The translations under genes and the position numbers were made by a program. The notes under the pieces are model-generated. The model saw nothing but the letters and a program-made list of their open reading frames with translations. It had not been told where the DNA came from and did not search any database. From contig URRF01000001.1 of the NCBI GenBank assembly GCA_900550145.1, positions 19,886 to 83,885 on the forward strand: 64,000 nucleotides of DNA, written 5' to 3'. This document shows, piece after piece, positions 1,366-63,089 of this stretch (position 1 is the stretch's first letter; each line of letters opens with the position of its first letter). This DNA is from an uncultured Mollicutes bacterium (GTDB lineage: Bacteria; Bacillota_I; Bacilli_A; RF39; UBA660).

Positions 1366-2592
1366 ATGTTACCATTCGATTATAATAAAGGTCTTTATAG
1401 ACGTAATAATTTTGGACAACCTTGTGTATGGTATGCTCGTCCTTTAGATTATAATTCTATTGAAGTTTTTCATGGTATTATAGGTAAAACTATTACTAAA
1501 GATATTATTTATATTAATAGAGAGCCAAGAGAGGAAATTACTTCTCGTATTAATGCTAAACTAAAAGTTGGATATAAAAATCTATGGGATATAAAAGATA
1601 ATGTTCAACTCCCCGTAGAGGGAGAACTATTATCATATCTTGATAAATATCTTCCTTTTAATCGTACTACTGCTGACGGTACTCTTTTGCCTATGCTTGC
1701 TAAAGTTTATGATAATACTAATAATAAACTTTTTAAAAAAGTAAGTAAGTATATTGGACAATATAAAATTAATGGTCTTCGTTGTTTTATTAGTGCTTAT
1801 CGTGATAATAACGATTTATTTGATGGAATAAAACTTAAATTTCAAAGTCGAGAAGGTACTTATTGGAATAGTTTACGTACTCTCGAAGTTTATCTTTTAA
1901 GTATATTTCCTAAGAAACTAATTGACGCTATGATTGAAGAACATTATATTCTTGATGGAGAATTATATCTTCCGGGTCATAGTGTTAATGAAATTAATCA
2001 TTTTGTTAAAGATCCTACTTGTAAAGAAAATAAACTTATTCAATTTTGGTGTTATGATATTGCTATTGATGATGTTGCTCAATATAATAGATTAGATTAT
2101 CTTTATACTATTATTGGAAATTATTATAATATATTTACTTCAAAAGAAGATCATCTTAATAATACAAATAGACTTGTTGTAATTCCTCAATATAATATTT
2201 GTAATGAAAATGTTGCTTATGAACGTAGAAATAGATTTATTGATTTAGGTTTTGAAGGTTTAATTATGCGTAATCCTGAAGCGGAATATCAATATGGTAA
2301 ACGTAATCTTAGTATGATTAAATATAAGAAATCTACTGATGGTAAATTTACTATTATCGATATTTATCCAGAAGGTATTAAACGTAAAGATATTCCTTTA
2401 TTTTTACTTCGTAATGATATAAATAATGAAACTTTTGAAGTTCATCTTGGTGGTTCTTTTAGTTATCAAAAATATGTTTTAGATAATAAAGAATATTTTA
2501 TTGGAAAAGAAATGTTTGTTGAATATGGAGAAAGAAGTGGTGTAAATCAAGTTCCTTTTCATGTTAAGAAAACTTATATTATTGATAAATAA
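1366..2592 (+). CDS. ATP-dependent DNA ligase-like nucleotidyltransferase (408 aa)
   Basis: Ordered covalent-nucleotidyltransferase motifs: motif I-like KINGLR (nt 1765-1782; N replaces the usual D of KxDGxR), motif III-like ILDGELY, motif IV-like EGLIMR, motif V-like MIKYKK. A C-terminal OB-like region follows. Carries one copy of the GC-rich motif (VQLPVEG). Confidence 0.6.
   Translation: MLPFDYNKGLYRRNNFGQPCVWYARPLDYNSIEVFHGIIGKTITKDIIYINREPREEITSRINAKLKVGYKNLWDIKDNVQLPVEGELLSYLDKYLPFNRTTADGTLLPMLAKVYDNTNNKLFKKVSKYIGQYKINGLRCFISAYRDNNDLFDGIKLKFQSREGTYWNSLRTLEVYLLSIFPKKLIDAMIEEHYILDGELYLPGHSVNEINHFVKDPTCKENKLIQFWCYDIAIDDVAQYNRLDYLYTIIGNYYNIFTSKEDHLNNTNRLVVIPQYNICNENVAYERRNRFIDLGFEGLIMRNPEAEYQYGKRNLSMIKYKKSTDGKFTIIDIYPEGIKRKDIPLFLLRNDINNETFEVHLGGSFSYQKYVLDNKEYFIGKEMFVEYGERSGVNQVPFHVKKTYIIDK
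1603..1622 (-). repeat. GC-rich motif copy (GTTCAACTCCCCGTAGAGGG)
   Basis: Exact 10-mer CCCCGTAGAG at 1611-1620, inside the ligase-like gene. Sense reading VQLPVEG. Confidence 0.9.
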
Positions 2593-2595
2593 TTT

Positions 2596-2949
2596 ATGAG
2601 TATTTATAATTATGAAATAATTAATCCTGTTACAAATATTAAAAAACCATTTTATGATTTTAAACGTAAATTATTGTTTTTTCCTGTAAATGGAAGTAGT
2701 TATCGTTATTATGTTGAAGTTGCAAGAAATAACAAAGATACTTTTGTAAGAGAGTATTATGTTTTACTTAGTGATAGAAAATTTGATGATAATTGTAGAA
2801 TTTGTCATGTTGATAATTATGGAAGATGTCAAATTAATCCAAGAGGAGAAATTAAAGATTACGTTATTCAAGAAACTAAATATCGAGGAAATATTGAAAT
2901 AGAATATGTTGAAAGTGAAAAAGATTATGATGTCTTTGCTATTATTTAG
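2596..2949 (+). CDS. hypothetical protein (117 aa)
   Basis: ORF starts 4 nt after the ligase-like stop and is followed by an intrinsic terminator. No recognisable motif. Confidence 0.55.
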   Translation: MSIYNYEIINPVTNIKKPFYDFKRKLLFFPVNGSSYRYYVEVARNNKDTFVREYYVLLSDRKFDDNCRICHVDNYGRCQINPRGEIKDYVIQETKYRGNIEIEYVESEKDYDVFAII

Positions 2950-2961
2950 TGTATTAGTTAT

Positions 2962-2995
2962 AGTGGAAGTATTTGTAGTGCTTCCACTTTTTTTG
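2962..2995 (+). terminator. rho-independent terminator closing the first + strand operon
   Basis: 8-bp stem AGTGGAAG (2962-2969) / CTTCCACT (2981-2988) with an 11-nt loop, followed by a T7 run. Lies 13 nt after the stop at 2949. Confidence 0.7.
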
Positions 2996-3034
2996 TTATT
3001 ATAGCTTACTTTCTCGTATAAAATGCCAATAAAT

Positions 3035-3048: not shown

Positions 3049-3112
3049 CTATATTGAATTATGTTATACTAAGTGATAAATAGTTCAATGTAATATCTAA
3101 ATAGCTAAAAAT

Positions 3113-3454: not shown

Positions 3455-4207
3455 ATGAAAGAATGTATTATTGGTATAGCAGGTTGTAAAAATTCTGGTA
3501 AAGATACTGTTGCAAGTATGATTAACTATATATTTGCAACAGGTATTACTCGTTCTAATTATGCGGATTATGTTATAAGGAGAAAAAGTATAAATATTTC
3601 TCATAAAGATAGAATTGTTCATTTTGCTGATAACATGAAAGATGTTATGAGTATTATTTTTAGTATTCCTCGTTTTGCTTTTGACAATAGAGTAAAAAAA
3701 GATAGCGAATATTGGGATTATTTTAATAATAAATTTGTTACTTTTGGAGAAGTATTAAGAGATAAAAATTATATTATATTTGATAATGTTATTGATAAAA
3801 ATTTAAATGATTTAATACAACATTGTTCTGCTAAAAAACAAAGTCTTTATATTAAACTTAGAGCACTTATGCAATATTTTGGTACTGATATTTGTCGTAA
3901 TCATATAGATAATAATATTTGGATAAATTCTACAATGTCTAAAGCTATAAATATTGCTATAAATAGAACATTATGTATTATACCAGATGTTAGATTTTCT
4001 AATGAAGCTAATGCTATTCGTAATAATAGTAAACTCTTCTACGGGGGATTGATTAAAATCAATCGTGATAATATTGATAAAGATGATCATAGTAGCGAAG
4101 ATATTTATTTTAATGCTGATTTTGAAATAGATAATAATGGAAATTTAATGCAATTATTTTATAAAGTTTTACATATATGTCAGAAAATAAAAGAGGTATT
4201 GCTTTAG
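3455..4207 (+). CDS. P-loop kinase, deoxynucleoside-monophosphate-kinase-like (250 aa)
   Basis: N-terminal Walker A IGIAGCKNSGKDTVA closely resembles the GxxxSGKDT N-terminus of phage dNMP kinases (T4 gp1 type). Sits in a nucleotide-metabolism neighbourhood (ThyX-like, dUTPase). Carries one GC-rich motif copy (LFYGG). Confidence 0.5.
   Translation: MKECIIGIAGCKNSGKDTVASMINYIFATGITRSNYADYVIRRKSINISHKDRIVHFADNMKDVMSIIFSIPRFAFDNRVKKDSEYWDYFNNKFVTFGEVLRDKNYIIFDNVIDKNLNDLIQHCSAKKQSLYIKLRALMQYFGTDICRNHIDNNIWINSTMSKAINIAINRTLCIIPDVRFSNEANAIRNNSKLFYGGLIKINRDNIDKDDHSSEDIYFNADFEIDNNGNLMQLFYKVLHICQKIKEVLL
4037..4051 (+). repeat. GC-rich motif copy, one mismatch (TTCTACGGGGGATTG)
   Basis: Inside the dNMP-kinase-like gene. 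Sense reading FYGGL. Confidence 0.8.
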
Positions 4208-9973: not shown

Positions 9974-10095
9974 CTCTACGGGGGATTCCACGAAGCGTAG
10001 CGGAGTGGGTATTGCTTATAAAAATCAAATTGCTAATTTTGTATATTTTGATGTTGATGCTCGTCGCTTTGCTCCTCGCGATTCCCCGTAGAGGA
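9974..10095. repeat. 122-bp intergenic inverted-repeat element whose termini are the GC-rich motif (possible ncRNA or DNA cruciform)
   Basis: CTCTACGGGGGATT (9974-9987) pairs with GATTCCCCGTAGAG (10080-10093) for about 14 bp including G-T pairs. An inner 7-bp pairing joins CGAAGCG (9991-9997) to CGCTTTG (10054-10060). The centre is AT-rich. The arms are much more GC-rich than the rest of the genome. Confidence 0.6.
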
Positions 10096-10677: not shown

Positions 10678-10718
10678 AAGCCCGTAGCAGACATTAGTTT
10701 GTTACGGGCTTATTTTTT
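10678..10718. terminator. bidirectional intrinsic terminator at the convergence of the + and - blocks
   Basis: Stem AAGCCCGTA (10678-10686) / TACGGGCTT (10703-10711) extends inward with G-T pairs to about 14 bp. A T6 run follows on the + strand and TTTCTAT on the - strand. Confidence 0.7.
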
Positions 10719-14600: not shown

Positions 14601-17600
14601 AGTAAGTTTAGTAAATATATCTTTAGCGTGAATACGTCCATCTCCACCAAATTCAACAGCTGTAATAGTTTTTCCTAATAATTCATTAATTCTACCTATA
14701 ATTTTAATTCTTCGAGGATTAACTTCTTTTTCATTTTCACTTGGATCACGAAGCATTCGATAAAAACTATCGTCAAATATAGGAAGATTATTAGGAATAT
14801 CTTTTATTAATATAGCTTCTCCAGCGTTACTATCATAACTAAAATCATATTTATGTTTAGTAAGTACTTTTATAGTAGCAATATCTTTATCGCTTAATTT
14901 TCGAGCATCGATATTACCAAATTCATCATAAGCATTAGCATCATCTATTATTTTCTTAATTTTAGCACTATTTAAATTATCTTCATCTTTAAGTATAGAA
15001 AATGCTTCATTAATTTTATCTTTAGCTTCTTTATTAATAACATAATAACTATTATTTTTAATCCATTCATAAGCACTTCTATATTCAATATTTTCTAATC
15101 GTTTATCTAAAGTTTGAGTAGGATTATTTTTCTCATAATGTTTAATAATAGCTAAATTCTTTTCAAGATTTTCTTTAAATTCATCAGTATCATTATAATC
15201 AAAATATTCTTTATCAAGAGCAGATTTAGCTTTAATAAAATTTTTTAATTTAATAGCACGTTCTCTTTCTTCAGGAGATTTAAGAGTTTCAGTATCTTTA
15301 TATTCAGAAGTAAGTTGATTAATTTTCTTATCGATTTCTCTTCTTCTATTACGCTCTTGAGTTGTTAAAGCACTATTTGGTTGATCATCAATAAATTTTT
15401 CATGAATATATTCCATATATTGACGATATTCTTCAGGAGCAGTTTCAAATATCTCTCTAATTAAAGCGTTCTTTTTAATATAATATTCTCGAACAACATG
15501 TTGTTCAACATTATCAGCATACCATTCATCACGCTTAAGTTTAGCAGCAATATATTCTTTACTATCTATACCATATCTATCAAGAGCATCTTTAACAGCG
15601 TCAACTAATTTATCTCTATCAGTAAGAAATTTAGCAGTATAAGGTCTAATAAGTTGTCCATTTGAATTAATAATATTTTCCCATCTAAAACTACCACTTT
15701 TATCTAATATATTATCAAATCTTTTAAGAAACTCATTTTTCTTACGAGGAGCATCTTGCATTGCAGCTTGATTCATAATCCTATTAACAATCTTAACAAT
15801 AACTTGTACTTGTTTATTGCTTAACATTGCAATATCTCCAATATTAGTTTCCCACCAACCAGAATCGCCAAAAGTATCTTTAAGATTAACAACGTTCATT
15901 CGTATATTAGGATTATTAGCAAATTCATTAGCAATATATTTATTAAACATATTATCAAATCCTTGTTTAATAATTGAAGAATTACGAATTTTATTTATAG
16001 AATCACGAATTTTTTGAATATATCTTTTAGTATCTTCGTCCATACCGTCAATAGGAAGACTCATAATATTTCCAAAAGTATCGCCAAATGTAATAGCTTC
16101 AAGTAATAATTTAACTATATTAGAAACTTCATCTGGATTACTTCTTAAAACTTCATATAAATCAGATTCTCCGATATTATATTCTTTATCGCCTATAACA
16201 TAATATTTCATTTGTTTATCGATCATATCAGCATAACTACTAATATAATCGCTAAGAATATGATATATATTTCTTCTATTATCTTTAATATCTTTAGAAC
16301 GATAAGAATTTATACCTTTTATATCTAATTTACGAAGTGCTTTAGCAGCAATATCATCACCTCGTTTTTCAGCTCTTCTAAGAGCAGCAATCATGGCAAC
16401 AGATGTTTCATCTACTTCAGTTATTCTATTAGCATTATCTATATAATCATCAGTTATATCAGTAGTAATAGCATATGCTTCATCATTAAAATTATCTCTA
16501 TTTTCTTGTTGTTGTTTTTCAAATTCTTCTCTAACACTTTCTTCAGTAATATGTTCAATTTTATAATATTTATGGGATTCAGTTTTAGAAGCTAATGCAC
16601 TTCTATAAGCATCACGTTCTTCAATTCTAACTTTTTGAACATTTTCTGTATTATTAGAAGAAACATTATTAATTAAATCTTTATGTAAATTAGATTTAAA
16701 AGCAGGAGACGGAGAATATCTTCTAATAGTAACAAGAATATTACCATTTTCAGTAGGAATATTTTGTGTAATAATATCAGTTTTTCCTACTTGTTCACTA
16801 ATATAAAAAGAATTAGAACGTACAACTCCATAATCACCTTTCTCCTCTACGGGGGATTGAATATAAGTCTCTACATCTTTAAATAGTTTATTAAGTTCAG
16901 CTTTTTGTATTTCAGTGCCGTTAACAGAAACATTCTGAAATTCATTAACATTATCAATAGCATTATTTTCCAAATTAAACTTATAACGAGGAATAATATG
17001 TTCTTTATATTTATCTTTTAATTTTACTTTATTATCCTTATCAATAAAATATTCTTTAGCTCCAATACTTTCAGCTTCAGCAATAACAGTGTTATAAAAA
17101 CTAATATCTCCATATTTGTTATTATTTGGATTAACGCTATAATCACCTGTTTCATTAGGCTCAAGTAAATTCATAGGAATAAGATAAACTCCGCTTTCAT
17201 GTTTGTCTATTTTATATAATGTACTAATTTTATTATCACCAGTACTTCTATTAACAACAATATAATCTTGAGGAGATTTAGTATTTTCAACATTAATTTC
17301 ATTAAGTAAAGTTTTAAATCTACCGTCAAAAGGAATAAATATTAGTCCATTACCTTTATTACAAATATTAAATTGAAAAGCAGTATTACTTATACCTTTA
17401 TTATTTTCAGGTTTACCGAGTTTAATAGATTTACAATATTCTTTATGACTGCGAATAAATTTATCAATAAATTCATTTGTAACTGCACTTGCAGGATTAG
17501 TATAATATCCAAATATTTCTCTAATAGCGGGAACAATACCTGTACCCATATCTTCTATATTTTTATATAAAGAATTATTAGTAATAATTTTATCAACAGC

Positions 17601-20600: not shown

Positions 20601-23600
20601 TTGTTTATCACCATTAATATTAACTAATTTACCATTTTTATCTTCTTTCCAGCCCATATTAAAAAGAAGTTTTTTAAAATCTTCTTTAATATTAGCGCAA
20701 TAATTTTTAAAGAAAGTATCAATATAAGGTTTAACAGATTCATTAGCATTATCACAAATCTTTTTAGTAATTTGCACACCGGCTTTATTTTGAGCATCTT
20801 TCATGTGCTCTGGAACATCTTGTTGTTTATAAAGAAAACGATAATAATAATCTTCTATAGCATTTTCATTATTAGAAATAAGATCTTGTTCAAAATTAGG
20901 ATTAATATTTCCATCATTATCCCAAAATGTTAAAACGTTCTTTTTAGCAGCTTTACTTGTTTCATTAGTATTAACTTGCCCAATATCATATTTGTGCATG
21001 AAATTATAAAGCTCTTTAAGTTGAGTTCCTTCAAGAAGTTCAGGAATAAGAACAAATTCAGCATTTTTAATTTGACGAGGATAATGTACTCCAGTATAAC
21101 TATCATATTTATGGTCATAATAAAAATTCTTCTGTACTTGAATACGAGAATTAATTTTACTAATATCTATATCTTCAATTCTACGTTGACCACTTCTAAG
21201 TTCATAAAGTTGTTGAAATATATCTTCATATTCTTTAAAAGTGCCATCAGCATAACGTCTACGCATAAATTCTTCAATAGTAATAAAAGACTGTGCGTCA
21301 TTAGTTTTACTTGCTTCTCTATATCCATTAGCAATTTCAGCAGCTTTTTTAGTAGCAGCAACTTCACCAAGTTCATCTTTAAGATAATTAAATAATTCTT
21401 GTTGAATATTATTAGCTTGTTTACTTGGTCTTACAGTATTATTAATAGTAACAGCTCTAAAACCATTACGAGCATATTTTCCAGCAGAATGAATTATTGC
21501 ATAACCCTCTACGGGGGAATAAGCATTAGCGTATTTATCTATTGTAGTATTGCCAAATTTAATTTCTTGTTTAGAACCATTATATCCAATAGTTTCTTTA
21601 ATTTTAGCACTAAGAGTATCATTAATATCAAATCCAGCATAGGCTGTTCCACCAGCTTGTACTTCTTTAGCACGTTTAAGAAAATCTTTAGCGTCTTTAT
21701 AAAATTTAACATCACCTTCAAGAAAATCATCTAATTGCATATAAGCATTAGCAGCATTAAGAGCAAAATCAACTAAATCTTCATTACTTTTTTGTAGTTC
21801 TTGAAGAATATTTTGATATTGTTTACCATGAGCTACAATCTCTTTATTAAAAGATTTAATCCATTGTTCAACAATATTATCTATAATACTTTTTACTTCT
21901 TGAGTTTCATTAAAAACAATTTTACCATTTTCAATTCTAATAAGAGGACTATTAACATTTAAAGTAGCAGTATTTCCTTTAACTTGAATAAGTCCTCCGG
22001 CTTCGCCTACGGACGTTCCCCCGTAGAGAAGTAATGCACGTTCAAGCTCTTCACCTGCTTTATAATCCTCTGTATTAAATAGTTTTTGAAAGCTAAAGAA
22101 ATTTCCACTTAGTTTACCAGCTTTAGGGTTAAGTTTAGTCTTTTCTTTATCAAGCCATTTACCTTCAACAAGAATACATTCTCTACCTTTATCGTCATAA
22201 GTAGTTTTATTAAAATGTACTCTTTCAATTAATCCATTAGTGTCTTTACGAAGAACCCAATTACCTTTACTATCATTATCAAATAAATAAGTTAATTGAT
22301 TAATAAACATATTAAGTTCTCCTAAAACATTTTGTCTAAATCCAGCAAATATAGGAGTAGCTCGATTAATACGAACATCTATAGAACCATTTTCAATACC
22401 TTCTTGTTTAATAATATCTGCTATATCGGCATAAAAATCATCACTAAGTTTATTATCGTTAACTGAAGAAATACCCTCTATTTCTATATTATATAAAATA
22501 TTATTTATTTCACCTTCAATTTTATCTCCTTTAATCCAAACAATATCGGGACTATCTTTAGTTTTATAAATTATAGGAATAGAAATAGTACCATCTTCAT
22601 TTTCAATATAATAATATTTATTAAAATTAAGAGTAGATAATTCTCCTTTAATAGCATAATAAATATCTTTAGCAGACCAAATATTATTTTTATTAGTAGC
22701 AGCTTTATCTTTAACTTCTAAATATTTATCATAATTTTCATCTGTATTTTCTAAAGTATAATTATCTATTTCATTACGTCTTTTATTAGCGTATTTAGCG
22801 ATATCTGTAGCTAAAGCTGTAATTGTATTTTTAGCATCAAGTTTAGGTGCTTGGATAATAAAATTTTTAGGAGCGTCAGAAGGAGTACGGAAAAAATATC
22901 CAGCTTGAGAAGCATTTAAACTTGCTTTAGAAGCACCAATATTTTGTCCAGCAATAATAGGATTAAAGTAAGCAATCATAGAAGTAGCAAAATAATCTCC
23001 TTTGGACATTTTAGCATATAAAGCCGCTTTATCACTTTGCATATCTTTAATACCATTAAATAAACTTATTTGAATAAGTTTTTGAGCATTAGGATTAATA
23101 GAGACATTATCTCTATCATCTCTCATAAATAATCCTTCTTGAATATATTTACCATTAGCTCCTTTAATTCCCCAAAAGAAACTATTATATTTATATTGTT
23201 CTCCTTTATTAATTTCTTCTAATAGATTTCTTAGACCAGCTTGAGCATCTTTTTTATTAGCATAATTAATTTGTTTGAGAAGATTAGTAATATAACTATT
23301 ATTAATTACATCAGAAGATAAATTACCTTCAGCGTTAACACTATTTAATTCATTACGAACAGCAGAATAGTTAACAAGTTTTTGACATATATTAACTATT
23401 GGTTCATTAAGTCTATCGTAATTAATATTAGAAGAATCAAATAAAGGAACATCTTTAGTATATTTTTGACCAATTTCTTCAGAATATCTTACAGCTTCAT
23501 TATAAGCTTTTCTTTCATTATTATATTTATTATATGATTCATTATATTCTATAACAGTAGTTTCAACTTTTTGTAAAAGATCTGCTATATTATTTAATAG

Positions 23601-25324: not shown

Positions 25325-28300
25325 TTATCTACATGCGTATTTAAGTTCGCCATTTCGCAGCATTTGAGCTATTAACGGCTTGTCCTGCTCCGAGTAGCTA
25401 TTGAGATAGTCTGCCATGTTATTAATTCGAGTAATATCCAGAGTTTCAGCAATGATATTACCGTCATTATTTTTAATAGCATTAATATTCTCTATATCAG
25501 AAGTAATTGACAATAGTTCATCAGAATTATCATTAATAGTGTTATAATCTTCATCTTCAACTATATCAGAATCATAACTATCTTCACCAAATTCATTATC
25601 TTCTTCGTTAATATCTTCTTCTATAATTTCAGATTCTTTAGTAATATCTTCACCAACATCTTTATCAGACAATACTTGATTATCTTTAATATCTTGTTTT
25701 ACATCATTTTCATTACTTATATTATTATCATTAATATTTAATATCTCATATTGACGAGCAAATATAGTATTGTTTTTAATACTATTATCTTTTATATTAA
25801 ATATTTTAAGTAATATATCAATAATCTTTTGAAAAATACTTTTCTTTTCATTATCTTCTGTAACAACAGCAACACCTTCTCCAGTATATTCAACTTGATT
25901 CAAATACTTAATAATACTACTTTGAGATAAACTTTCAACAAGCCATTCTTCAGCAAATACTCTACGTTGTTCATCTTCGGAAAGTTCAACATAACTATCT
26001 TTTTGTTTAGCTTTAATACGTTCAAAATAATCTTTAAAAGTAAAGCCATTATCTTCAATCCATTTCTTAATATTAACAGCTAAATTATAACGTTCGCTAT
26101 TTCTATCACCATAATCAATATCATGCTCAACAGCTTCAATGAATTTATTATAAGTTTCAAACAAATCGTCTATAATATTTTCTTTATCAAAAAGATTATG
26201 TTCATCGATATGTGCATGAAGTTGTTCATGAATAAGTAATCGAACTAATGTTGTAGGAGAAGAATTAGCTAAATTAGAACCAGCTTTAGTAAATATAACA
26301 GCTTTTTTATCTCTATTATATTTAGCGTTACCTGTTTTATCTTTTTTATCGTAATAATAAACGCCAGAAACAATAGGAATACCATAAACATTTTTACCAG
26401 TAAGTAAATCAATAGTTGATTTTGGAATAGCAGCTTTTTCAAGAAGACGTTCTGTAGAATTAGCTTTTTCAAGAGTAGCGGTTTGAATAGTATTAGCAAT
26501 TCCAATAATTGATTCTTCCTCTACGGGGGATTGAACTTGATCAGGTACAGCAAGAGTAGTAACATTAATATACATAGAAGTAGCTTTATCAACATCATTA
26601 AAGAAACCTCCATACTTATTAACTCCTTGATTTGTATTAAAAGCATTATTTTGAAGAACAAAATCTCCAAAATTATCATATACAATTTCGCTATTTCCAA
26701 GTTTAACTACAAATTTATTATCTTTTTTAAAGAAATAAGGATTATCTGTAGTATTACCATTACCGATATTATTAAGAGTAAAGAACGTTCTATTATAAAT
26801 AGTATTATTAGTTATTTCTGTAGCAATAATATTTATAAGTTTATCATTAACATTAATAAAACTTGTAGTTTTTGAATTATCACCTGCGGGATTATAAGTA
26901 ATCCCTGTACCCAATTCATTTGAATTACCAGCTTTAAACTTATGTATAATAACGTTAAATTTAGAAGTATTATGACCAATAGAAAGAATTATTTGATTAT
27001 TAGAACTAATAACATCATAACCGTAAAATATACTTGGGAATTTAGTATTAGCAGAATTAAACAATAAACCAAGTTTATCTCTAACTTCTTCAAAAGTATA
27101 TTTTTTATTTTGAAAACCAGTTAAAATATCAACAAGTTCTTTATGAAGATTTTCTTTAATTTTACCAGCAATTTTATTAGCACTTGTAAACATAGCTATA
27201 ATAGGCGTTTTGCCTCTACCTCCAATTAGGAAACCCATATTACCAGCAAGAAAAGGAGCAGTAATTTGTTGTTTCTCGCCTGTTAATTCATTAATAGCAA
27301 CTATACCATTTTTATCACTATCGATACCAATAATAGCATGTTGATCAGATTTAAAAGGTAATTCATTAACACCTTTTTCAGTATTTTCAATAATAACATC
27401 AGAAGTTTCTTTTACACCTTGATTTGTTCCTGTTTGCCCAGCATATTTAACAATAACTTTTTTGCCATTAGCAGTAAGAGTTCCAATTTTATGAGTATTT
27501 TTATAATTATTAAAAATATTTTCTTTCCATTGTTCATAACTATCTTTATATTCTTCAATAGTTTGAGCTAAAGGATTATAGAAAATAATATTTTTAAGAT
27601 TATAAATAATACGTTTAGCTTTATCTATATCGCTTATTAAAGCAGGATCAAGTTTAATTACTTCGTCTTTAATAGCTTTTTGAATAACTTCACTATTATA
27701 GATTCTTTCATATTCTTCTTTAGTTAAATCATATCCATAACCTAAATCATAAAGATTCTTCTTATGGAATAAATCCCATAATTCATTTTCATTATTAAAA
27801 ATAGCTTCAAATAACTCATCTGTATTAGCTTCAACTTGATTATTTATTTTACGAACGTGATAATTAATTCCACCTTTTGGGCCAAGTTTTATTCTATAAC
27901 CATTATTATCACTATCTGGAATAACATTAGAAATAAATCCAATTTCAATACCTTTACGCTTAATAGCAAAAGAAACAATTTCATGATTTCTGCTTTCTAT
28001 AGGAACAATTTCTAAATCATCTCCTACTTGTAAAGCATTAACAACTTGTTCATAATTAGGACTTCTATTAACACGAGAAGGAACAATGTGCATATAATTA
28101 TCAATAAATTCAACTCTTTTGCTTGCTTCATAAACGGCATTATAAAAATCTGTAGGATTATTAAGTAAAGTATTAAGACTACGCTTATGAGTAAATACAT
28201 AATTAGTATTATAAGAATTATTAATAAAATCTTTTATATTATATAATATATGATAAGCAGTTTGAACATCTAAATCTAACATTTGTTTATTAGCATCATC

Positions 28301-37577: not shown

Positions 37578-40500
37578 AATCGACTTATTTTATAATTAAG
37601 AGATTCAAAATCAATACGTCTATTTTGCATAAGAAATTCAAATTCAATAATAAAATAATTACCATAAAGTCTACTCATAACTATAGCAGATTGATCTTCT
37701 TCATTACCAATCATGTTACGAAGATAACTAAAATTCCAATTACCTAAATCCCAATAAGGTTTTTTATAATTACCAAATATATTTTTATGTTCATTAGGAT
37801 CAACACTTTCGTTATCAACAGTAATATTTATATCATTAGTATTAACATTATCGTTATAAACTCTAAGCCATTGTCCAGCATAAGGAGTATCTAATTTCTT
37901 TACGGGGGAAGGAACATCACCATTTACAGATTCATCAATTTTATAAAGTTTATAAGTAATATATTCTAAAAATTTAATAATATCATATCCTTCATTAACA
38001 ATAAAAGATAATTTACACATATTATTATACCTTTCATTAGCAGAAGCATATCTATAATTATTATTATAAGTGCAATAATTATTTATATTTTCAGTAAAAT
38101 TATAAACAGCATCATAAATTGAATTATTACTTTTAAAACTATTAATAAAATAAACTTTATTTTTACTATTATAAGCATCTCTAAAATAATAACTATGTCT
38201 AGAAATAAAATTTTGAGTTTTATAATTATAACTAAGAACTAAATTACGTTTTTGAATAAAAGTACTATTATCTTCATTTTTTCTAAAAATATCATAATCG
38301 AACTTAATAAGTAAACGATTATTTCTAATATCATGAGCAAATCTTACATTATTAGGTTTAGCTTTAACAAGCCATTCTGCGATATCATTACTAATAATAA
38401 CTAATTGATTATTATCAAATCTATAAATATTATTATCGTCGTTATTATAAAATATATAACCAAATTGGTCAACAATAGCACTTCGTTTATCTTGAAGGCC
38501 TCCATAACCTAATTCAGAAGTAAATACTTCTTTATAAGCAACATCAAAAGCATCTGGTTGATGAAGTTGAATATTTTGGTCAATAGTTTTAAGTTCATTA
38601 TTTAAATCAAACATAAAAAGACTATGTTCAGTATGAGCTAAAACTAAATTACCAATTCCAACTAAATTAATAATAATACCTTTATTTTCAGTAATATTTT
38701 TATATGCTTCTAAACCAAATTTTCTCCAAGCATTTTCTCTTGATTCATCTTGAATAATATTACTTCTACGAATAGTTTTATTATAAATATCAATATATTT
38801 AATATCGTCTCTATAATTACTATAAGTTTTAGGATTAAATTGATCAGAACTACCTTGTCTATTTTCAAATAAATCGATAGAATTAGCTGGTGTAACCATA
38901 TAGCCTGTTCTATATTGAGTAGAATCTTTATCATTACCTAATTTAGTTACATAAGATTGAGGTTTAGGTTCATTTTTAAAACATTTACTTTCATGAAAAA
39001 CTGTATCAATAACAGGTATTTGTAAATAACACATAAATGGCCTATCATTTTCATAAGTTTTATTATGTTCCGGAGAAACAGTAGTAGGATAATATTGATA
39101 TTCAGTGTTTTGCATAGTTACAACACCATTTGTTTCATTAAATACTACTCCACTATCAGCATATATAATAGTACCACTATAACTATAAACACCGTTAAGA
39201 CCTGTACTAATAATTCCAGTATTATTTTTGTTATAAAAAACATCAGTAAATTTAATAAGAATTTTATTATTATTATTATATATATTAGGATTATCTTTAA
39301 CTAAAGAAACTCTATATAAATTAATATCATTATTTTTCTTTTCAGTAGCATTAACAAAAAGATCATATTTATTGTCAATAACTATACATGTACCTACACC
39401 AAGACGATTATCTTTTACAGAATTAGCAACAGCTAATTTATAATTAGGCATAGGATATAATTTTTCAAAATTATAATCTTGTAACTGAAGTTTATTCATA
39501 TCAGTAACAAATCCAAATGGAGCATTTCTTTGATAATAATTAATATTAGGAATATCATCATAATCAAAAACGTTTTTACCTTCAATTCTAAGAAAATCAA
39601 AATCTAATTCTAAAGTATCATCTATATCTAAACTATCACAATAAAAATTCATAGTATTAGAACTCATTGTATTTAATGAATCTTTTTTAACTACATTATC
39701 AGCATGATTATATATTCTTAAATTACCGTTTATAATTTCTAATTTGTTATAATTACCATTAATAGTTGTACTAGTATTTATTAATCCATCAATAATTATT
39801 CCAGAAATACTTCCTCCACCATTTTCAATTACACCATAAGCTAAATTTCCATCAGTTATTTTATTATTAACTATTTTAACGTTATATATAGTGCCTGAAT
39901 ATAGTTTTACAGTACTATGATTATTAACCCCTTTACTAATAGTAATGCTTATTAATTTATAATCAGTATAGTCAGTATCTTTTTTAGCAATAATAGTATC
40001 TGTATTTCTAAAATCGTTAATAGTAAGTAATCCTGTATATTTATTTCTTTTCTCAAATTTTTCATAAGAAATAAAATAACCTATATAACCATTAGGTATA
40101 ATAATATTATTAAAATAAGGACAATAAACTCTATGACTATTAACATCTATATTATTAAACGGAACTTTAAATAAACTATCTCCATTACTATTTATATAAT
40201 TATCAAAACCATATTCGTTAGTATTTATATAATTATTAAAAGTAAATATTTTATAAAATTCATAGTTTAAATTTTGATTTAGAAAATGTTTTACAGAATC
40301 AATTAATTTATTTTTAATATAATCATAATCTTCTCTTCTAATTTCATTTTGTATTTCTCTATTTAATTCTTTAGTAATAAAATTATAATCAGCATAATAT
40401 CTAATCATATGATCAGCAGGATTTTTATAATCATTTATAATATAACCTGAAGTTAACTGTGTTTTAATTATAATATCATTTATTTTAGCAGTTTTATCAA

Positions 40501-42499: not shown

Positions 42500-43342
42500 T
42501 TATCCTTTTGGATTAAAAGTGAAATTAAAGAACGCATTGCGCCATTGTTTGTGAGCACTATCAATATCTTGTCCACGATTAATAACAGAACGTTTAGCTT
42601 CTTCTTTAAGTTGTAACCATATATAATAAGGATTAGTACCATATTGAGAAGCACCAAGATTAAATACAGGATGCTTATATCCACGACATAACATTTTATA
42701 CATGCAATAAAAACCAATAGCTTCTACAAGAATTGCATTATCTGGAATAACAGGAAATTCACAACCGTAAACTTTACTACGTTCAGTTTTGATAGTATCA
42801 TATTCAATAGTAATACAATCAGTATCAAAATCGAGTTCAATTTTATTACCATCTATTATAACAAAATTATGAGTACGATTAGTTGTTTTACCAACATAAT
42901 TATACTCATTCACTCTATATCTACCAGGCCATTCTTTATCATTAAGAGTTTCAGCAAGAAGATAATCTGGAACTTTTGACGGATTATCATTATGATAAAC
43001 ATCTGTTGTATTTACTGCGTTAGAACTGCTCGTTTCACTCGCAGGTTCCCCCGTAGAGGAGCAACCATTACAACCTCGTTCACTATTAGCTTCTTTTATT
43101 TCACAACCTTTACTATCATAAACTTTAATATTAGTATTAGCTATTGGACAAGCACTAATTGCTATTCTCTCCTTTACGGGGAGTTGAACTTTAGCTCTTT
43201 CAGTATTTAATATATTAAGTTGTCCCATAACTTCTAAAGTCCAAACTCCAACTCTTGGAATCCAATCACTATTATCGGGATTAAAATCATTATCTATCTT
43301 AGCAATAATTCTTTCTATATTAGTTGTATCTTGTTTAATCAT
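42500..43342 (-). CDS. tail/virion module protein (280 aa)
   Basis: ORF immediately upstream of the 1592-aa gene. Contains a locally GC-rich Cys/Ser-rich segment (ERGCNGCSSTGEPASETSSS) bracketed by an inverted pair of GC-rich motif copies. Confidence 0.6.
   Translation of the reverse strand: MIKQDTTNIERIIAKIDNDFNPDNSDWIPRVGVWTLEVMGQLNILNTERAKVQLPVKERIAISACPIANTNIKVYDSKGCEIKEANSERGCNGCSSTGEPASETSSSNAVNTTDVYHNDNPSKVPDYLLAETLNDKEWPGRYRVNEYNYVGKTTNRTHNFVIIDGNKIELDFDTDCITIEYDTIKTERSKVYGCEFPVIPDNAILVEAIGFYCMYKMLCRGYKHPVFNLGASQYGTNPYYIWLQLKEEAKRSVINRGQDIDSAHKQWRNAFFNFTFNPKG
43028..43070 (-). repeat. GC-rich motif copy with an extended flank resembling the right arm of the intergenic element
   Basis: Core TCCCCCGTAGAGGAG at 43047-43061. 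The blocks TGCTCGT, CTCGC and AACC flank it in the same order as at 10047-10105. Sense reading CSSTGEP. Confidence 0.8.
43171..43189 (+). repeat. GC-rich motif copy, one mismatch (CCTTTACGGGGAGTTGAAC)
   Basis: Inside the 280-aa gene. Sense reading VQLPVKE. Inverted partner of the 43047 copy. Confidence 0.75.
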
Positions 43343-56326: not shown

Positions 56327-57511
56327 TCAAATAAGATTTAATTTATGATTATAAGCAGCTACCATAGAAGCATTTTTTGGATCTTTAAACCAAGCAATAG
56401 CTTCTCCAGTATTAGCACCTATTAATTCTCCATCAGTAGTAGTAATATTTTGACTATATTGAGAACGAACTAACTCTCCACGGGCAATAAGTTTTTCAAT
56501 AACAGCCATAAGTTTAATATCCTTATTATATACTATTTTGTTGAATTTAACAGGTTCATTAGAACTAAATTTATCCAAATCAATTTCCTTATCAAGTTGT
56601 GGTCTATTCAAATAGGTAAGAACAGGTAAAGAATTAAGAACACAATATTGAATATAAACAGCTTCAAATAAAACACTATCGGCTATACAAGCAACATAAT
56701 TAGATTTTGCTTTATTAACTTCAAGTCTATATTTGCGAAGTTTATCAGCTTCTTTCTTATCATCTTTAAAATAAAAACGTATAGAAGTATCAGAATTAAT
56801 AATAGATATATCTTTTGCTACACTATGATACAACAAACAGTGTCTATACATAAGATAATCTTCTACATTAATAGGATAACCAACTTTATGTTTTTGAGAT
56901 TCAAGAAGATTAAGAGCATTAACTTTAGCTTTAATAGCTGCTTTAATTTCAACATCTCCTCTACGTGGAGCTTTTTGATAAGTCTCTTCGATAGCCTCTT
57001 CTTTAGCTTTAAATTTATAATAATCTTTTTTATGATAATAATAAAAACTAATATCAAACGTTTTTCCTAATTCATCAACAGGAATACGAATATTATTAAG
57101 ATATTGTTTTACTCTTAACATAAAAGAAGGATCATTAGGAGAAAGACCAACAAGATTTGGAAAATATGCGTTGACTTCTTCTTGATTAGCTGAAATAACC
57201 TTAGACGAATTAAAACAACTTCCAATATAATCAATACGTTTAGGAAGTACTTTATCATTTACTTTACGATATAGCGAAGTATTTTTAACAAGCATAATCG
57301 TTATAGAACGAACATCAGTATAAGGTTGATTTTCACTTAAATCTTCTCTGTCAGCACCTTTTTCTATATCAATCTTAGAAGTAGTAGGTTGTTGAATAGT
57401 ATTAACTACCTCTACAGGAGATTGAACAGAATCTTCAACTGTCTGTTTATTTATTTCGGTATTTGGTTTATTAAATCCAAATGTCATACCACTGTCAGAA
57501 CTATTTTGCAT
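56327..57511 (-). CDS. capsid-module protein (394 aa)
   Basis: ORF directly downstream of the MCP candidate, with a disordered S/T/Q-rich N-terminus. Contains the decayed motif copy encoding VQSPVE. Confidence 0.55.
   Translation of the reverse strand: MQNSSDSGMTFGFNKPNTEINKQTVEDSVQSPVEVVNTIQQPTTSKIDIEKGADREDLSENQPYTDVRSITIMLVKNTSLYRKVNDKVLPKRIDYIGSCFNSSKVISANQEEVNAYFPNLVGLSPNDPSFMLRVKQYLNNIRIPVDELGKTFDISFYYYHKKDYYKFKAKEEAIEETYQKAPRRGDVEIKAAIKAKVNALNLLESQKHKVGYPINVEDYLMYRHCLLYHSVAKDISIINSDTSIRFYFKDDKKEADKLRKYRLEVNKAKSNYVACIADSVLFEAVYIQYCVLNSLPVLTYLNRPQLDKEIDLDKFSSNEPVKFNKIVYNKDIKLMAVIEKLIARGELVRSQYSQNITTTDGELIGANTGEAIAWFKDPKNASMVAAYNHKLNLI
57409..57427 (+). repeat. decayed GC-rich motif copy (CCTCTACAGGAGATTGAAC)
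   Basis: Matches the 26518-26536 copy at 17 of 19 positions. Both differences are G-to-A and are synonymous in the sense strand, so it still reads VQSPVE. Confidence 0.5.
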
Positions 57512-60573: not shown

Positions 60574-60590
60574 ATTTATGAATATAATTT

Positions 60591-60632
60591 GCCCTATTTT
60601 GATATATCGTTTTTGATATATCAAAATAGGGC
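60591..60632 (-). other. perfect 18-bp hairpin downstream of the portal gene
   Basis: GCCCTATTTTGATATATC (60591-60608) / GATATATCAAAATAGGGC (60615-60632) with loop GTTTTT. Lies 28 nt after the portal stop. No clear U-run follows on the minus strand. Confidence 0.6.
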
Positions 60633-60659
60633 AACAACATAACTAACTATATCAATAAC

Positions 60660-63089
60660 TTACTTTTTACTCTTAGATTTACCTTTAAAATCATATCTAT
60701 TTTTATTCTCTTTAGCAATCTTATATTTAGTATCAATATCATGCATTTTAACTTGTCTATCACGTTCTTTATTGACCATATCTAATAAAGTCTTTTGTTT
60801 ATCTAAAGCTACTTTATCTTGTTCAACTCTTGAACGAGCTTCATTAAGTCTATCAATACCAGCTTCTTTATTAGCACTGCTAACTTCAGCATTATAACTT
60901 ATCATATTAGCGTCAGCACGAATAAGTTCAATTTGTTGATCAATATAACCTTCAAGTTCTTTAGTCTTTCTATCTTCTTCTCCTTTAGCTGCAATCTTTT
61001 TAAGTTCAAATTCTTGACGCATTTGTTCAGTTTGTTGTTCCATTTGTTTAAGTTGTTGTTCATGAGCGTCTTTTTCTTCTTGAAACTTCTTAATAAGTTT
61101 ACTAATAGCAGCAACATTATCTCCAGTAATAGCAGCAATTGCCATCATACTATCACCATTTTGAGAAGCATTAAACGCAAATTGTTTAAGTTGATTAAGT
61201 TTTTCTTGTTCTTTAGTAGAATTTTTAGCTTTAATAACGTAATCAGCATATATATGTTTATCTACATCAAGACTAATATACTTTAATTTATCGTCTGCTG
61301 AATCTCTATATGCGGTATCAAGACCATCAATCCATGCAAGTTTAGAATAATCCATATCTCGATTATAATCATAACTTCGAAAATTATCCATCATAAATTC
61401 TATAATAACACTACCCATACTACCTCTAATAATAGCTTCTTCAGTAGATGCTTTTCCAGCATAATTACTGATTTCACCATAACGTTGAGGCGTCATATCA
61501 ACTTGCATATTTGCAGTCTGTTGAATTTCATTAAGTAAAGTACTTAATTGAGCAATATAATCTCCAAAAGAAGCAGTAAGCATACGAACTTGTTGTGCTC
61601 TAAGCATACCTTGATCATTTTCATCATCAATATACAAAATACCATCAGCAAGCATTCGATAAATAGTTTCTTCAGGATATTTACCTAATAAAGATTTAGC
61701 TATCATAAGAATATTAAGTTTATTTTTAGCAATAACCATTTCTCTATGATAAGCTACAATATTATAAAATACTTGAAAAGGAGTAACTATATCTACAATA
61801 CTAAATTTTCCAAAACCCGGAAGAATTTCATTAATACCATTATAAGGTAATTTTCCATTACGATTATAAGCTATAGCTCTTGCTCCATAAGGATAAATTG
61901 CATCATGTCTTCCACCAATACGAACACTTTCATAAACTTGTGGTTCATACACATATTCTAATGAAATATCCCCCGTAGAGACATTAAGTACATAATCATC
62001 ATTCTCAACTCTACTATCTATTAAACCAGCTTCATTAACAAACGTTACAATAGCTCTTCTTACTTCACCTCTCCAAACTACATGCCAAACATCATACAAA
62101 TCCATATTATAATCTCTTTGCATATTAGGAGAACGTCTAAATAGTTCTCTATCAGCTATACTATATTTTTGACAAACATCTGGAAAATAACTTTCATAAG
62201 TTGAAAAAACTAAATCTTTAGTATTAGCTGGAGAATGTTTAGCATAATAAGTATTAAGAAAATCTCGTTGTTTATCGTCAAGATAATCATCAAATTCATC
62301 AATAATTTGTTGATAAGACATTTTACGTCTACAAGCAAACATGTCATCGTTTTCTCTAAAAGGACTATCTGTATTAATAGGATAAGCGTCTCTCGGAGAA
62401 ACATTTCGTTTAACTAATTTTGTACCAACAACATCAGCATAAGTATAACACTCACCAAAACTTACAAAATCAAAATATGCTCTTGCATAAAATATTTTAT
62501 CATCAGTAATATCTCGAATTACATTAAGAATCTCTTGAGCTTGTGCAGATATATCATCTACGTAATTCTCATTAAATTCTTTTGTAAAAGCTTCAACATC
62601 AATAGAATCTTGAGGATTAAATTGTTGAGGATCATTACCTCCATTAACCCATTCTTGATAACTTTGCTGAATACGAGCAGCAATACGTTGTTGAACAAGT
62701 AAAGATAATTCTTGCCTAAGTTTACGATTACGGGCAAGCATTACTTCTGGATTATTAGCTCCTACAATAAAATCATGAGGGTTCTTAATATATTCACTAA
62801 CATATCTTCTTATAATACCTTTCATTAAATCATAATTACGCATAGTAGCAGGAAAACGTTTAAATTTCTCTTGAGTAGCATTATAAGGATTTAATATCTT
62901 TTTATAAAATTCATCAGGAATATTACCATTAAGAATAGCATATTTTATTTCTATTTCTGAATTATCGCCTCTATTAGCAATACCTTGAGCTATAATCCAA
63001 TCACAACAATTAGCTGCCCAAGCAGCATCTTTTTTATCACTTGGAATACGTTGTAAAGGAAAATCAAATTCTTGTACATTACTTCTCAT
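60660..63089 (-). CDS. portal protein candidate (809 aa)
   Basis: Immediately downstream of the TerL-like ORF. Its size and long coiled-coil, K/E-rich C-terminal extension fit crAss-like portals. This is mainly by synteny. One GC-rich motif copy (VSTGD). Confidence 0.55.
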   Translation of the reverse strand: MRSNVQEFDFPLQRIPSDKKDAAWAANCCDWIIAQGIANRGDNSEIEIKYAILNGNIPDEFYKKILNPYNATQEKFKRFPATMRNYDLMKGIIRRYVSEYIKNPHDFIVGANNPEVMLARNRKLRQELSLLVQQRIAARIQQSYQEWVNGGNDPQQFNPQDSIDVEAFTKEFNENYVDDISAQAQEILNVIRDITDDKIFYARAYFDFVSFGECYTYADVVGTKLVKRNVSPRDAYPINTDSPFRENDDMFACRRKMSYQQIIDEFDDYLDDKQRDFLNTYYAKHSPANTKDLVFSTYESYFPDVCQKYSIADRELFRRSPNMQRDYNMDLYDVWHVVWRGEVRRAIVTFVNEAGLIDSRVENDDYVLNVSTGDISLEYVYEPQVYESVRIGGRHDAIYPYGARAIAYNRNGKLPYNGINEILPGFGKFSIVDIVTPFQVFYNIVAYHREMVIAKNKLNILMIAKSLLGKYPEETIYRMLADGILYIDDENDQGMLRAQQVRMLTASFGDYIAQLSTLLNEIQQTANMQVDMTPQRYGEISNYAGKASTEEAIIRGSMGSVIIEFMMDNFRSYDYNRDMDYSKLAWIDGLDTAYRDSADDKLKYISLDVDKHIYADYVIKAKNSTKEQEKLNQLKQFAFNASQNGDSMMAIAAITGDNVAAISKLIKKFQEEKDAHEQQLKQMEQQTEQMRQEFELKKIAAKGEEDRKTKELEGYIDQQIELIRADANMISYNAEVSSANKEAGIDRLNEARSRVEQDKVALDKQKTLLDMVNKERDRQVKMHDIDTKYKIAKENKNRYDFKGKSKSKK
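61969..61980 (-). repeat. GC-rich motif copy (TCCCCCGTAGAG)
   Basis: Exact 10-mer, inside the portal candidate. Sense reading VSTGDI. Confidence 0.9.

Follow-up and report, generated by a model that had tools for sequence, protein, structure and literature searches.

The stretch of DNA analysed here (the window: 64,000 nucleotides (nt), positions 19,886 to 83,885 of contig URRF01000001.1 in assembly GCA_900550145.1, filed under an uncultured Mollicutes bacterium) is a Crassvirales genome, 94–96% identical to contigs from human faeces, through which copies of a short motif with the 10-mer core CTCTACGGGG are dispersed. Its portal protein shares 64% identity with that of cr3_1 (Diorhovirus) and 56% with that of Carjivirus communis, the prototypical crAssphage. 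The content of guanine plus cytosine (GC) was measured at ~26%, a correction to the ~30% given in a first-pass annotation of the window, and motif copies constitute four of its seven GC-rich islands. All twelve exact copies of the core reported in that annotation were recovered with their coordinates and strands, as were its three one-mismatch copies (4037, 37898, and 43172); a fourth one-mismatch copy, CTCTACGTGG at 56959, is probably a chance occurrence. Dinucleotide shuffles of the window lead one to expect 0.01 exact copies against the 12 observed, and 0.21 copies at up to one mismatch against 16. When synonymous codons were permuted among positions—which preserves every protein as well as the codon usage of the genome—0.03, 0.8, and 6.0 copies were expected at zero, one, and two mismatches, compared with 12, 16, and 24 observed. 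Enrichment is at least 400-fold over both kinds of shuffle, and the over-representation that had at first been estimated by hand is thus borne out, next to no exact copies being expected under either. The evidence set out below confirms that the motif is a real DNA signal under selection and that it occurs family-wide in the Intestiviridae.

Alignment of the copies across the window gives the consensus YYCTCTACGGGGGATTGAAC. Thirteen copies are coding and two, at 9974 and 10084, are intergenic. The coding copies are distributed over eight open reading frames (ORFs), encoding a DNA ligase, a deoxynucleoside monophosphate (dNMP) kinase, proteins of 4539, 2178, 734, 1592, and 280 amino acids, and the portal; the first-pass annotation had the number of coding copies right and the number of ORFs, which it put at nine, one too high. 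The individual copies are as follows.

1611..1620, minus strand: core copy in the DNA ligase gene, antisense, read as LPVE; 3′ flank AGTTGAAC; orthologous to cr3_1 52316 and p-crAssphage 18157.
4037..4046, plus strand: one-mismatch copy TTCTACGGGG in the dNMP kinase gene, sense, frame 0, read as FYGG; GATTGA flank kept.
9974..10008, plus strand: intergenic long form, core 9974-9983 and GC-rich hairpin 9988-10008 (CCAC GAAGCGTAGCGGA GTGG); left arm of a 120-nt inverted pair, 157 nt upstream of ORF 10131-10598.
10059..10093, minus strand: intergenic long form, core 10084-10093 and GC-rich segment 10059-10080 (CGCGAGGAGCAAAGCGACGAGC); right arm of the inverted pair.
16845..16854, plus strand: core copy in the gene of the 4539-residue virion RNA polymerase, antisense, read as SPVE; flank GATTGAAT; relative position 0.61.
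21507..21516, plus strand: core copy in the 4539-residue gene, antisense, read as SPVE; orthologous to cr3_1 34262; CTCTATGGGG in a 99%-identical strain (L019).
21992..22028, minus strand: long form in the 4539-residue gene, sense; relative position 0.24; core 22019-22028, hairpin 21992-22014 with GGCGAAGCC.
26519..26536, plus strand: full extended copy CTCTACGGGGGATTGAAC in the gene of the 2178-residue RNA-polymerase-associated protein, antisense, read as VQSPVE; relative position 0.82.
28968..29000, minus strand: long form in the 2178-residue gene, sense; relative position 0.44; core 28991-29000, hairpin ACTCCAC-GAA-GTGGAGT at 28968-28984.
35391..35400, plus strand: core copy in the 734-residue gene, antisense, read as SPVE; flank GATTGATA.
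35535..35544, minus strand: core copy in the 734-residue gene, sense, read as STGK; orthologous to cr3_1 20975 and p-crAssphage 51406.
37898..37907, plus strand: one-mismatch copy CTTTACGGGG in the 1592-residue gene, antisense, read as SPVK; orthologous to cr3_1 19021.
43026..43058, minus strand: long form in the 280-residue gene, sense; core 43049-43058, hairpin CTGCGAGT-GAA-ACGAGCAG at 43026-43044; orthologous to cr3_1 14360 and p-crAssphage 58727.
43172..43189, plus strand: one-mismatch copy CTTTACGGGGAGTTGAAC in the 280-residue gene, antisense, read as LPVK; forms a tight divergent pair with the 43049 copy.
57410..57427, plus strand: decayed copy CTCTACAGGAGATTGAAC with two G-to-A changes in the 394-residue gene; orthologous to p-crAssphage 83016 and cr3_1 89914.
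61971..61980, minus strand: core copy in the portal gene, sense, read as VSTGD; lineage-specific, made by substitutions in a variable tripeptide.

The decayed copy at 57410-57427 lies in the interval from 43.2 to 61.9 kb, which had initially been described as free of strong copies. Translation of the coding copies follows the three patterns recognized at the outset: seven antisense copies read (S/L)PV(E/K), four sense copies STG(E/D/K), and two sense copies (L/F)YGG. Identical codons turn up on either strand and in three different frames. A 3′ extension, GATTGAAC, accompanies six of the eight antisense copies in the window and only one sense copy, because the commonest sense frame (xxC TCT ACG GGG) turns GAT TGA into a stop codon; the flank extension proposed in the first-pass annotation is real, though absent from most sense copies.

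Alignment with relatives, in which tblastx projection placed many sites at the same codon, within ±1 to 7 nt, in different genera, revealed that the nucleotides of the motif are kept at orthologous sites across genera where the flanking protein is only 30–60% identical. Together with the frames, strands, and shuffles, this cross-genus conservation strongly supports the original contention that the conserved object is a nucleotide string and not a peptide. The window copies at 1611 (ligase), 35535, and 43049 form orthologous trios with cr3_1 and p-crAssphage at the positions listed above, a site in DNA polymerase B is common to cr3_1 (61235) and p-crAssphage (10170), and positions in the ligase, primase, DNA polymerase B, and giant RNA polymerase genes are shared across genera and subfamilies. 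In five of five genomes the ~2000-residue RNA-polymerase-associated protein carries the motif in sense at relative position 0.44-0.47 and in antisense at 0.76-0.85; the RNA polymerase of more than 4000 residues carries a sense site at 0.20-0.24, likewise in five of five, and the primase gene a site at 0.67-0.72 in four genomes. Motif sites often fall between conserved protein blocks. Comparison of strains within the species shows differences at 2.5% of aligned positions in the core and at 6.6% in the flanks (Fisher P = 8e-6), core positions 2–9 being almost invariant. Single sites are nevertheless gained and lost within the species, since site 57410 reads CTCTACAGGAGATTGAAC in the window and is an intact CTCTACGGGG in a 97%-identical strain (L015).

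GC-rich islands in an AT-rich genome that are translated in frame and occur in inverted pairs might also be expected of a selfish or mutational by-product, be it an in-frame miniature mobile element, a recombination linker, a peptide motif, or an assembly artefact. Such an origin appears extremely improbable. In the portal gene the codons AAT GTC TCT ACG GGG GAT occupy the place of AAT CCT GAA ATA GGA GAT in relatives, with the length unchanged, and this site has therefore been made by substitution. In-frame mobile insertion—of the kind known as Rickettsia palindromic elements (RPE), repetitive extragenic palindromes (REP/REPIN), or miniature inverted-repeat transposable elements (MITE)—was rejected because portal homologues without the motif are equally long and the tripeptide has been substituted. 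A peptide motif or protease cleavage site (xPVE) was rejected as well, since identical codons occur in non-homologous genes and on both strands, one copy resides in the non-virion ligase, and codon shuffles yield ~0 copies. An assembly artefact is excluded because independent assemblies from separate studies carry the same sites. Even spacing, described below, would be unexpected from insertion. Moreover, 81 breaks in strain identity lie no nearer to motifs than chance would place them (median 1524 nt versus 1227 nt), so that the recombination or gene-conversion signal considered in the first-pass annotation finds no support in a clustering of such breaks at motifs. Invertible segments were likewise discarded, as inversion between copies would wreck giant essential ORFs; no recombinase gene was noticed in the annotation tables or among the window ORFs scanned.

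Of the seven Intestiviridae genomes examined, six have the motif as their most strongly over-represented 9- or 10-mer; in the seventh, cr107_1, it ranks near the top, behind trinucleotide-repeat words. It is present in all three Intestiviridae subfamilies, and the seven genomes hold 15–31 copies each, copy counts differing slightly with the search pattern used. The family consensus is YYYTYTAYGGGGGR, bordered on both sides by lineage-specific flanks, as the genomes compared with the window illustrate.

cr3_1: 31 copies, consensus GYTTC-CTYTACGGGG-GARC.
p-crAssphage: 31 copies, consensus TCCATC-CTCYACGGGG-RGTM.
crAss002: 28–30 copies, consensus CTC-CTYTAYGGGG-GAA.
cr107_1: 31 copies, consensus CTC-CTYTAYGGGG-GAA.
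cr271_1: 15–17 copies, consensus ATCTC-TTCTACGGGG-GAGCT.
cr8_1: 27–29 copies, consensus ACATACC-TTTTACGGGG-SGGCTAGA.

By lineage, the sets of flanks are TCCATC..GGTC, GYTTC..GARC, ACATACC..SGGCTAGA, ATCTC..GAGCT, and ..GATTGAAC. In a pooled logo of 184 copies, obtained by a loose 17-nt search, T2, A5, and G7–G10 are essentially invariant (the exceptions at A5 being one G and one T), positions 1, 3, 4, and 6 interchange pyrimidines only, and positions −1 and −2 are pyrimidines. The 16-mer CTCTACGGGGGATTGA is found in IMG/VR almost solely in strains of the present species (91–99% identity) and in one more distant relative, and the IMG/VR strains carry at least three further motif copies past the end of the window. 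Two other contigs, L008 (IMGVR_UViG_3300031669_006974, 38% GC; 9400-9415) and L014 (43% GC; 2102-2117), contain one exact CTCTACGGGGGATTGA each and display no detectable DNA similarity to the window; in L008 the copy stands 41 nt short of the contig end, with a terminator-like hairpin after it. Both matches are probably due to chance. The cr8_1 record has the same ~55-nt sequence at both of its ends, holding a motif copy (L054 43-52, plus strand, and L055 42656-42665), with an inverted copy 70 nt in (L054 113-122, minus strand); the terminal overlap thus sits at a tight motif pair.

Outside the Intestiviridae the situation is different. The TACGGGG motif is absent from crAss001 (Steigviridae; MH675552.1), in which the word CTTCTGGAG is over-represented 75-fold relative to base composition, with 27 copies on both strands (for example 13791-, 37942+, and 59147+ in L052+L053), per-strand coefficients of variation (CV) of 0.45 and 0.54, and alternating orientation in 19 of 26 cases; judging from the sequence, this word may represent an analogous system in Steigviridae. 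cr10_1 (Suoliviridae; L058+L059) possesses no comparable GC-rich dispersed word. Its top recurrent 9-mer, TTACTTTGG / TACTTTGGA with 17 copies, resembles the Bacteroidetes −7 promoter element TAnnTTTG, and the genome is annotated with a retron-type reverse transcriptase and a transfer-messenger RNA (tmRNA).

Along each strand of the Intestiviridae genomes the motif is spaced evenly. The CV of the gaps amounts to 0.31-0.48 per strand, as compared with ~0.9 for random placement, and evenness reaches P <= 0.004 on 11 of 14 strands (both strands of cr3_1, p-crAssphage, cr8_1, and cr107_1, and the plus strands of the window, crAss002, and cr271_1). One copy occurs per 5–7 kb on each strand, and maximum gaps are small. 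When both strands are taken together the set is less even (CV 0.59-0.75, and 1.08 in the partial window) because opposite-strand copies often sit close together. Orientation alternates from copy to copy in 12/14 cases in the window, 21/30 in cr3_1, 21/30 in p-crAssphage, 26/30 in cr107_1, and 22 of 26–27 in both crAss002 and cr8_1, an alternation that probably follows from the interleaving of two evenly spaced series. According to a hand tally of the site lists, opposite-strand copies frequently form close pairs (28–150 base pairs (bp) apart), ~11 of 14 of them divergent, while same-strand copies never do so; the two orientations therefore act independently. In p-crAssphage the minus-strand series keeps a 5–6 kb period that continues unbroken across the gene-orientation switch at 29.3 kb, which points to a strand-neutral process such as replication rather than to messenger RNA (mRNA). 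Some 74% of all copies are located in ORFs; the remaining ~26% fall into the ~8% of sequence that is intergenic, corresponding to a ~3-fold enrichment there. With respect to the genes, ~60% of copies are sense and ~40% antisense. Intergenic copies mostly face the downstream gene, at a distance of 12–270 nt from its ATG, and the divergent p-crAssphage pair 95745-/95866+ lies between divergently transcribed genes.

The arrangement of the copies bears on how the motif is read. Double-stranded sites for a phage protein acting genome-wide—either a silencer resembling those at stoperators or P1 C1 operators, or an architectural IHF/HU-like virion protein—have to be considered, and the protein in question might enforce a carrier or plasmid-like state or organise the genome. 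An asymmetric signal of 14–20 bp in ~30 copies, genic as well as intergenic and specific to the lineage, would suit such a protein, and the copy number is near that of the stoperators of mycobacteriophage L5. According to annotation, the structural module of all these phages encodes IHF/HU-like proteins, and p-crAssphage has been suggested in the literature to live as a phage-plasmid. We nonetheless consider duplex binding unlikely, given that evenness is a property of each orientation (CV 0.31-0.48) and not of the combined set (0.59-0.75), and that tight opposite-strand pairs, whose spacing varies from 18 to 120 bp, would be redundant for a duplex binder. In addition, orientation is not tied to transcription as it is in stoperators, and more than 70% of copies reside in ORFs.

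Reading on a single strand is also inherent in a Chi-like 'self' signal, at which a helicase–nuclease would be restrained so as to limit the degradation of phage DNA from breaks; a phage RecD/Dda-like helicase acting with a PD-(D/E)XK exonuclease, or the host AddAB, could be the reader. The motif is strand-specific, dispersed in both orientations, and evenly spaced with a small maximum gap, individual sites come and go between strains and lineages, and the phages are annotated with a Gam-like inhibitor, RecT, an exonuclease, and RecD-like helicases, all of which would suit this explanation. However, crAss001 and crAss002 both infect Bacteroides yet carry different motifs, which makes a host Chi unlikely; the Chi sites known so far measure 5–8 nt; and neither the mini-hairpins described below nor the tight divergent pairs are accounted for. 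Overall, a Chi-like role seems decidedly improbable. Even less is to be expected of site-specific single-strand nicks introduced by a phage nickase, as in T5, phiKMV-like phages, and phage tf. Phages known to be nicked carry nicks on one strand only, without even spacing, whereas the motif populates both strands; the genome papers on crAss001 and crAss002 make no mention of nicks, and the ends of the metagenomic contigs that were checked do not coincide with motifs. What speaks for nicking is a long, strand-specific, dispersed consensus comparable in length to that at phiKMV nicks, together with the presence of a DNA ligase in these phages and of HNH nucleases in many of them.

The core can fold as a hairpin of the C(UACG)G type, exemplified by GUUCCUC-UACG-GGGGAAC in cr3_1. 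When the core was folded as RNA together with 8 nt on either side, the motif strand attained −3 to −7.6 kcal/mol, its complement −1.4 to −4.3 kcal/mol, and random sequence ~−1 kcal/mol. Variation in the 5′ arm is exclusively C to T, G-T/G-U pairs being preserved, and the −3/+3 flank positions are compensatory between lineages (T-A, A-T, C-G). Better folding of the motif strand and the preservation of pairing in arm and flank would be in keeping with an RNA element in which a stable tetraloop hairpin stabilises or processes transcripts. That explanation is highly doubtful all the same, as ~40% of copies lie antisense to all annotated genes and are equally conserved and equally evenly spaced. 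The loop, too, varies (UACG, CACG, UAUG), and Rfam yields no match at its gathering threshold, nor any at the sites of the motif when E <= 1 is allowed. In cr8_1 the stem requires three consecutive wobble (G-U) pairs and reaches −3 kcal/mol, and T2 is invariant though C would pair better, two observations that count against any hairpin role of the core; such a role is possible but unproven. Long-range RNA pairing of neighbouring sense and antisense copies was rejected on hand comparison, since the variants CTCT/CTTT in cr3_1 and T/C at position 4 in p-crAssphage show no covariation between neighbours.

A second hairpin is found downstream of the core in a subset of copies. In the five long forms of the window (9974+, 10084-, 22019-, 28991-, and 43049-), a GC-rich mini-hairpin with a GAA or GNA loop begins 4–6 nt past the core, as in GGCGAAGCC and ACTCCAC-GAA-GTGGAGT. 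A GNA-loop mini-hairpin of the GCGAAGC type (variants GCGAAGC, GCGTAGC, and GCAAAGC) follows in about one-third of copies, and 10 of the 15 GCGAAGC heptamers in five genomes sit 9–16 nt downstream (3′) of a core in the same strand. Long forms are mostly sense-oriented. The d(GCGAAGC) mini-hairpin is a well-known DNA structure of exceptional stability; the promoter hairpins of the N4 virion RNA polymerase belong to its class, which also occurs at the phiX174 origin. Long-form extensions consist of tandem pentamers (AGCGN)3-4, e.g., AGCGG AGCGA AGCGA AGCGG, which contain the GCGAAGC mini-hairpin; they were located in p-crAssphage (L046 28077-28215 and the L046 44953 region; L047 43667 and 45866 regions) and in crAss002 (L049 36212 region). 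Their 5-nt periodicity could reflect a protein-binding array.

The element at 9974-10093 is composed of two inverted long-form copies, whose joint 120-nt hairpin has a folding energy of −57.7 kcal/mol (z = −5.9), and it is located within a plus-strand gene block. An RNA made from it and directed at the other copies had been contemplated in the first-pass annotation; nothing suggests such a guide RNA, the element being just an inverted pair of copies. The true convergence of the plus- and minus-strand gene blocks lies ~600 nt to the right of the pair and is marked by intrinsic terminators of canonical form (a 15-bp stem with a T run after it) at 10678-10711 (+/-) and 11560-11585 (-), of which the former is bidirectional and lies beyond ORF 10131-10598. 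Two further ORFs, also on the plus strand, were noted: ORF 7287-8015 weakly resembles the Thoeris inhibitor Tad3 in Pfam (E = 3.9e-5, which falls short of the curated cut-off), and the next one, ORF 8015-9037, encodes a clear DUF932 protein (E = 5e-47), the 'phage/plasmid-related' gene of crAss phages. ARAGORN detects one transfer RNA (tRNA) in the window, unrelated to the motif, and no tRNA-like match at any motif site. This tRNA-Asn(GTT) at 46348-46439 (+) is 92 nt long, enough for an intron, and overlaps ORF 46008-46511 (-) inside the minus-strand gene block. A tRNA-like or attachment-site origin of GTTCAATCCCCCGTAGAGG was rejected, as a 5′ T-stem partner is missing and ARAGORN finds nothing at the sites.

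Given a signal that is strand-specific, evenly spaced on each strand, and conserved as nucleotides, we tentatively propose that the motif serves as an initiation signal for a phage enzyme, for either primer synthesis or promoter-dependent RNA synthesis. A phage-encoded enzyme would read the motif as the start of template-directed RNA synthesis from A5 and yield a product beginning ACGGGGG...; the main use would most likely be the provision of primers for discontinuous DNA replication on both strands. Candidate readers are the divergent DnaG-like primase and the giant RNA polymerase of the Intestiviridae. A homologue of the latter, the virion RNA polymerase of the distant crAss-like phage phi14:2, accepts single-stranded DNA as a template and not double-stranded DNA, and the related two-barrel RNA polymerases of phage P23-45 use specific conserved promoter motifs. 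Sense intergenic long forms may double as mRNA promoters that furnish a protective 5′ leader hairpin. The near-invariant A5 followed by a run of G fits a purine start nucleotide and a G-rich initial product. T7 and T4 primases obey a rule of a cryptic template nucleotide and a pppAC start, and the T-A-C of the motif mirrors this logic. As to the enzymes, the Intestiviridae primase is a divergent DnaG-like protein with the zinc motif CSPFRxDxHPT and the Toprim motif DNDxTG, and a profile built from six such primases retrieves no relative from PDB or Pfam; Steigviridae and Suoliviridae, which are without the TACGGGG motif, have canonical DnaG-type primases. A RepB′-like primase, which would read single-strand initiation (ssi) signals, was rejected on the same profile result and because the motifs of the protein are those of a divergent DnaG-like primase. 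On this tentative proposal, Intestiviridae would possibly punctuate both strands every 5–7 kb with a polymerase start code, thereby hard-wiring lagging-strand priming and perhaps replication-coupled transcription into the genome, essential genes included.

Transcription as the sole purpose, with the motif as a promoter proper for a phage RNA polymerase and antisense copies driving antisense or regulatory transcripts, constitutes a sub-case of the initiation signal. A ~20-nt signal with a conserved start region and lineage-specific flanks has the appearance of a promoter, and the ~3-fold intergenic enrichment of copies that mostly face the downstream gene, the location of the pair 95745-/95866+ between divergent p-crAssphage genes, and the predominantly sense orientation of long forms, with their hairpin near the 5′ end, all agree with this. 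The scarcity of host-type bipartite promoters points in the same direction; TTTG-N17-23-TAnnTTTG is found only 1–6 times per genome. These counts are low in all families and therefore not discriminating, and a role of the motif as a replacement for host-type promoters was rejected on the grounds that they do not separate the families. A promoter proper is rendered rather unlikely by the ~40% of copies that are antisense, evenly spaced, and kept at orthologous codons, by a per-strand period that is indifferent to gene orientation, and by phi14:2, whose middle and late genes are transcribed by host RNA polymerase. The searchable literature contains no transcription-start data for Intestiviridae.

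Several points weigh against the initiation signal as such. The initiation role, the reader enzyme, and the direction of synthesis are all matters that we infer. No promoter motif was found for the phi14:2 virion RNA polymerase, and the early transcripts of that phage showed no common motif upstream. The 'TAC' analogy is loose because half of the p-crAssphage copies have C before the A and because TAT is as common as TAC in Churivirinae. Folded as DNA, the core hairpin is only marginally stable (−0.2 to −2.2 kcal/mol), so that hairpin priming of the G4 or ssi type is not well supported where the short forms are concerned. The correspondence between primase type and motif spans three families only. 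Known primase sites are 3–5 nt long and frequent, in contrast to a motif of 14–20 nt that appears once per 5–7 kb on a strand. Finally, the phage RNA polymerase promoters known to us all point with the genes, whereas only ~60% of motif copies are sense.

Irrespective of its reader, the motif is a concrete, conserved cis-signal of 14–20 nt whose coordinates are known in the cultured crAss002 and in Carjivirus communis, which renders the biology of initiation directly testable in a family that includes the most abundant human gut phage. If an initiation role holds, the start code would amount to a mode of replication and transcription control without a described counterpart. The motif explains the rare-codon islands and the odd conserved tetrapeptides (SPVE, STGE) of Intestiviridae proteins and offers a sharp sequence signature for the family and its sub-lineages in metagenomes; conversely, synonymous recoding of Intestiviridae genomes could destroy its function. 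A full-text search with the sequence itself returned unrelated primers only, and the papers on phi14:2, P23-45, crAss001, crAss002, and Carjivirus do not describe the motif. Nor is it described in the searchable literature on crAss promoters, motifs, and hairpins, a body of text that does not extend to subscription-only papers and logos in figures, where a prior mention is possible.

In its general appearance the motif resembles phage promoters, primase and ssi sites, stoperators, and Chi, and it fails at least one testable defining feature of each. The promoters of the T7 group (T7, T3, K11, and SP6) share with it a length of ~20 nt, tens of copies, a lineage-specific flank, and a conserved start region that is pyrimidine-rich, then TA, then G-rich. 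Some T7 promoters lie inside coding sequence, late T7 transcripts begin with a hairpin, and T7 promoters prime replication at the origin. However, promoters of the T7 type all point with the genes, in contrast to the ~40% antisense copies and the evenly populated strands of the motif, and T7 polymerase is no relative of the giant two-barrel RNA polymerase of crAss phages. Primase sites (5′-GTC for T7 gp4, 5′-GTT/GCT for T4 gp61, every few hundred bases) and ssi signals (the G4 origin and RSF1010 ssiA/ssiB, element-specific hairpins on opposite strands, once or twice per replicon) are, like the motif, strand-specific and found on both strands; for the motif, density bounds fragment length. It differs from both in its 14–20 nt, its occurrence once per 5–7 kb, the weakness of its core hairpin as DNA, and a GNA hairpin that is confined to about one-third of copies.

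The stoperators of L5 and Cluster A phages and the P1 C1 operators, each read by one phage protein, likewise are asymmetric sites of 13–17 bp in ~20–35 dispersed copies, some of them in ORFs. Whereas stoperators follow transcription and are located mainly in short intergenic gaps, the motif occurs in both orientations, ~74% in ORFs, and evenly on each strand. Chi sites and DNA uptake sequences or uptake signal sequences (DUS/USS) are, as is the motif, short over-represented words under selection inside genes, in preferred frames, with individual sites turning over while density is kept. They are selected by a process tracking along DNA, and DUS are also found in inverted pairs. In contrast to the motif, they belong to cellular genomes, measure 5–12 nt, and are not evenly spaced, and the motif is specific to the phage lineage rather than to the host. 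The promoters of the N4 virion RNA polymerase, lastly, belong to the same class of GNA-triloop mini-hairpins as the long forms, and both phage groups package a virion RNA polymerase. N4 has three early promoters at one genome end, whereas the motif has ~30 copies on both strands; its mini-hairpin is on the motif strand, downstream of the core, and, unlike that of the N4 promoters, is present in only about one-third of the copies.

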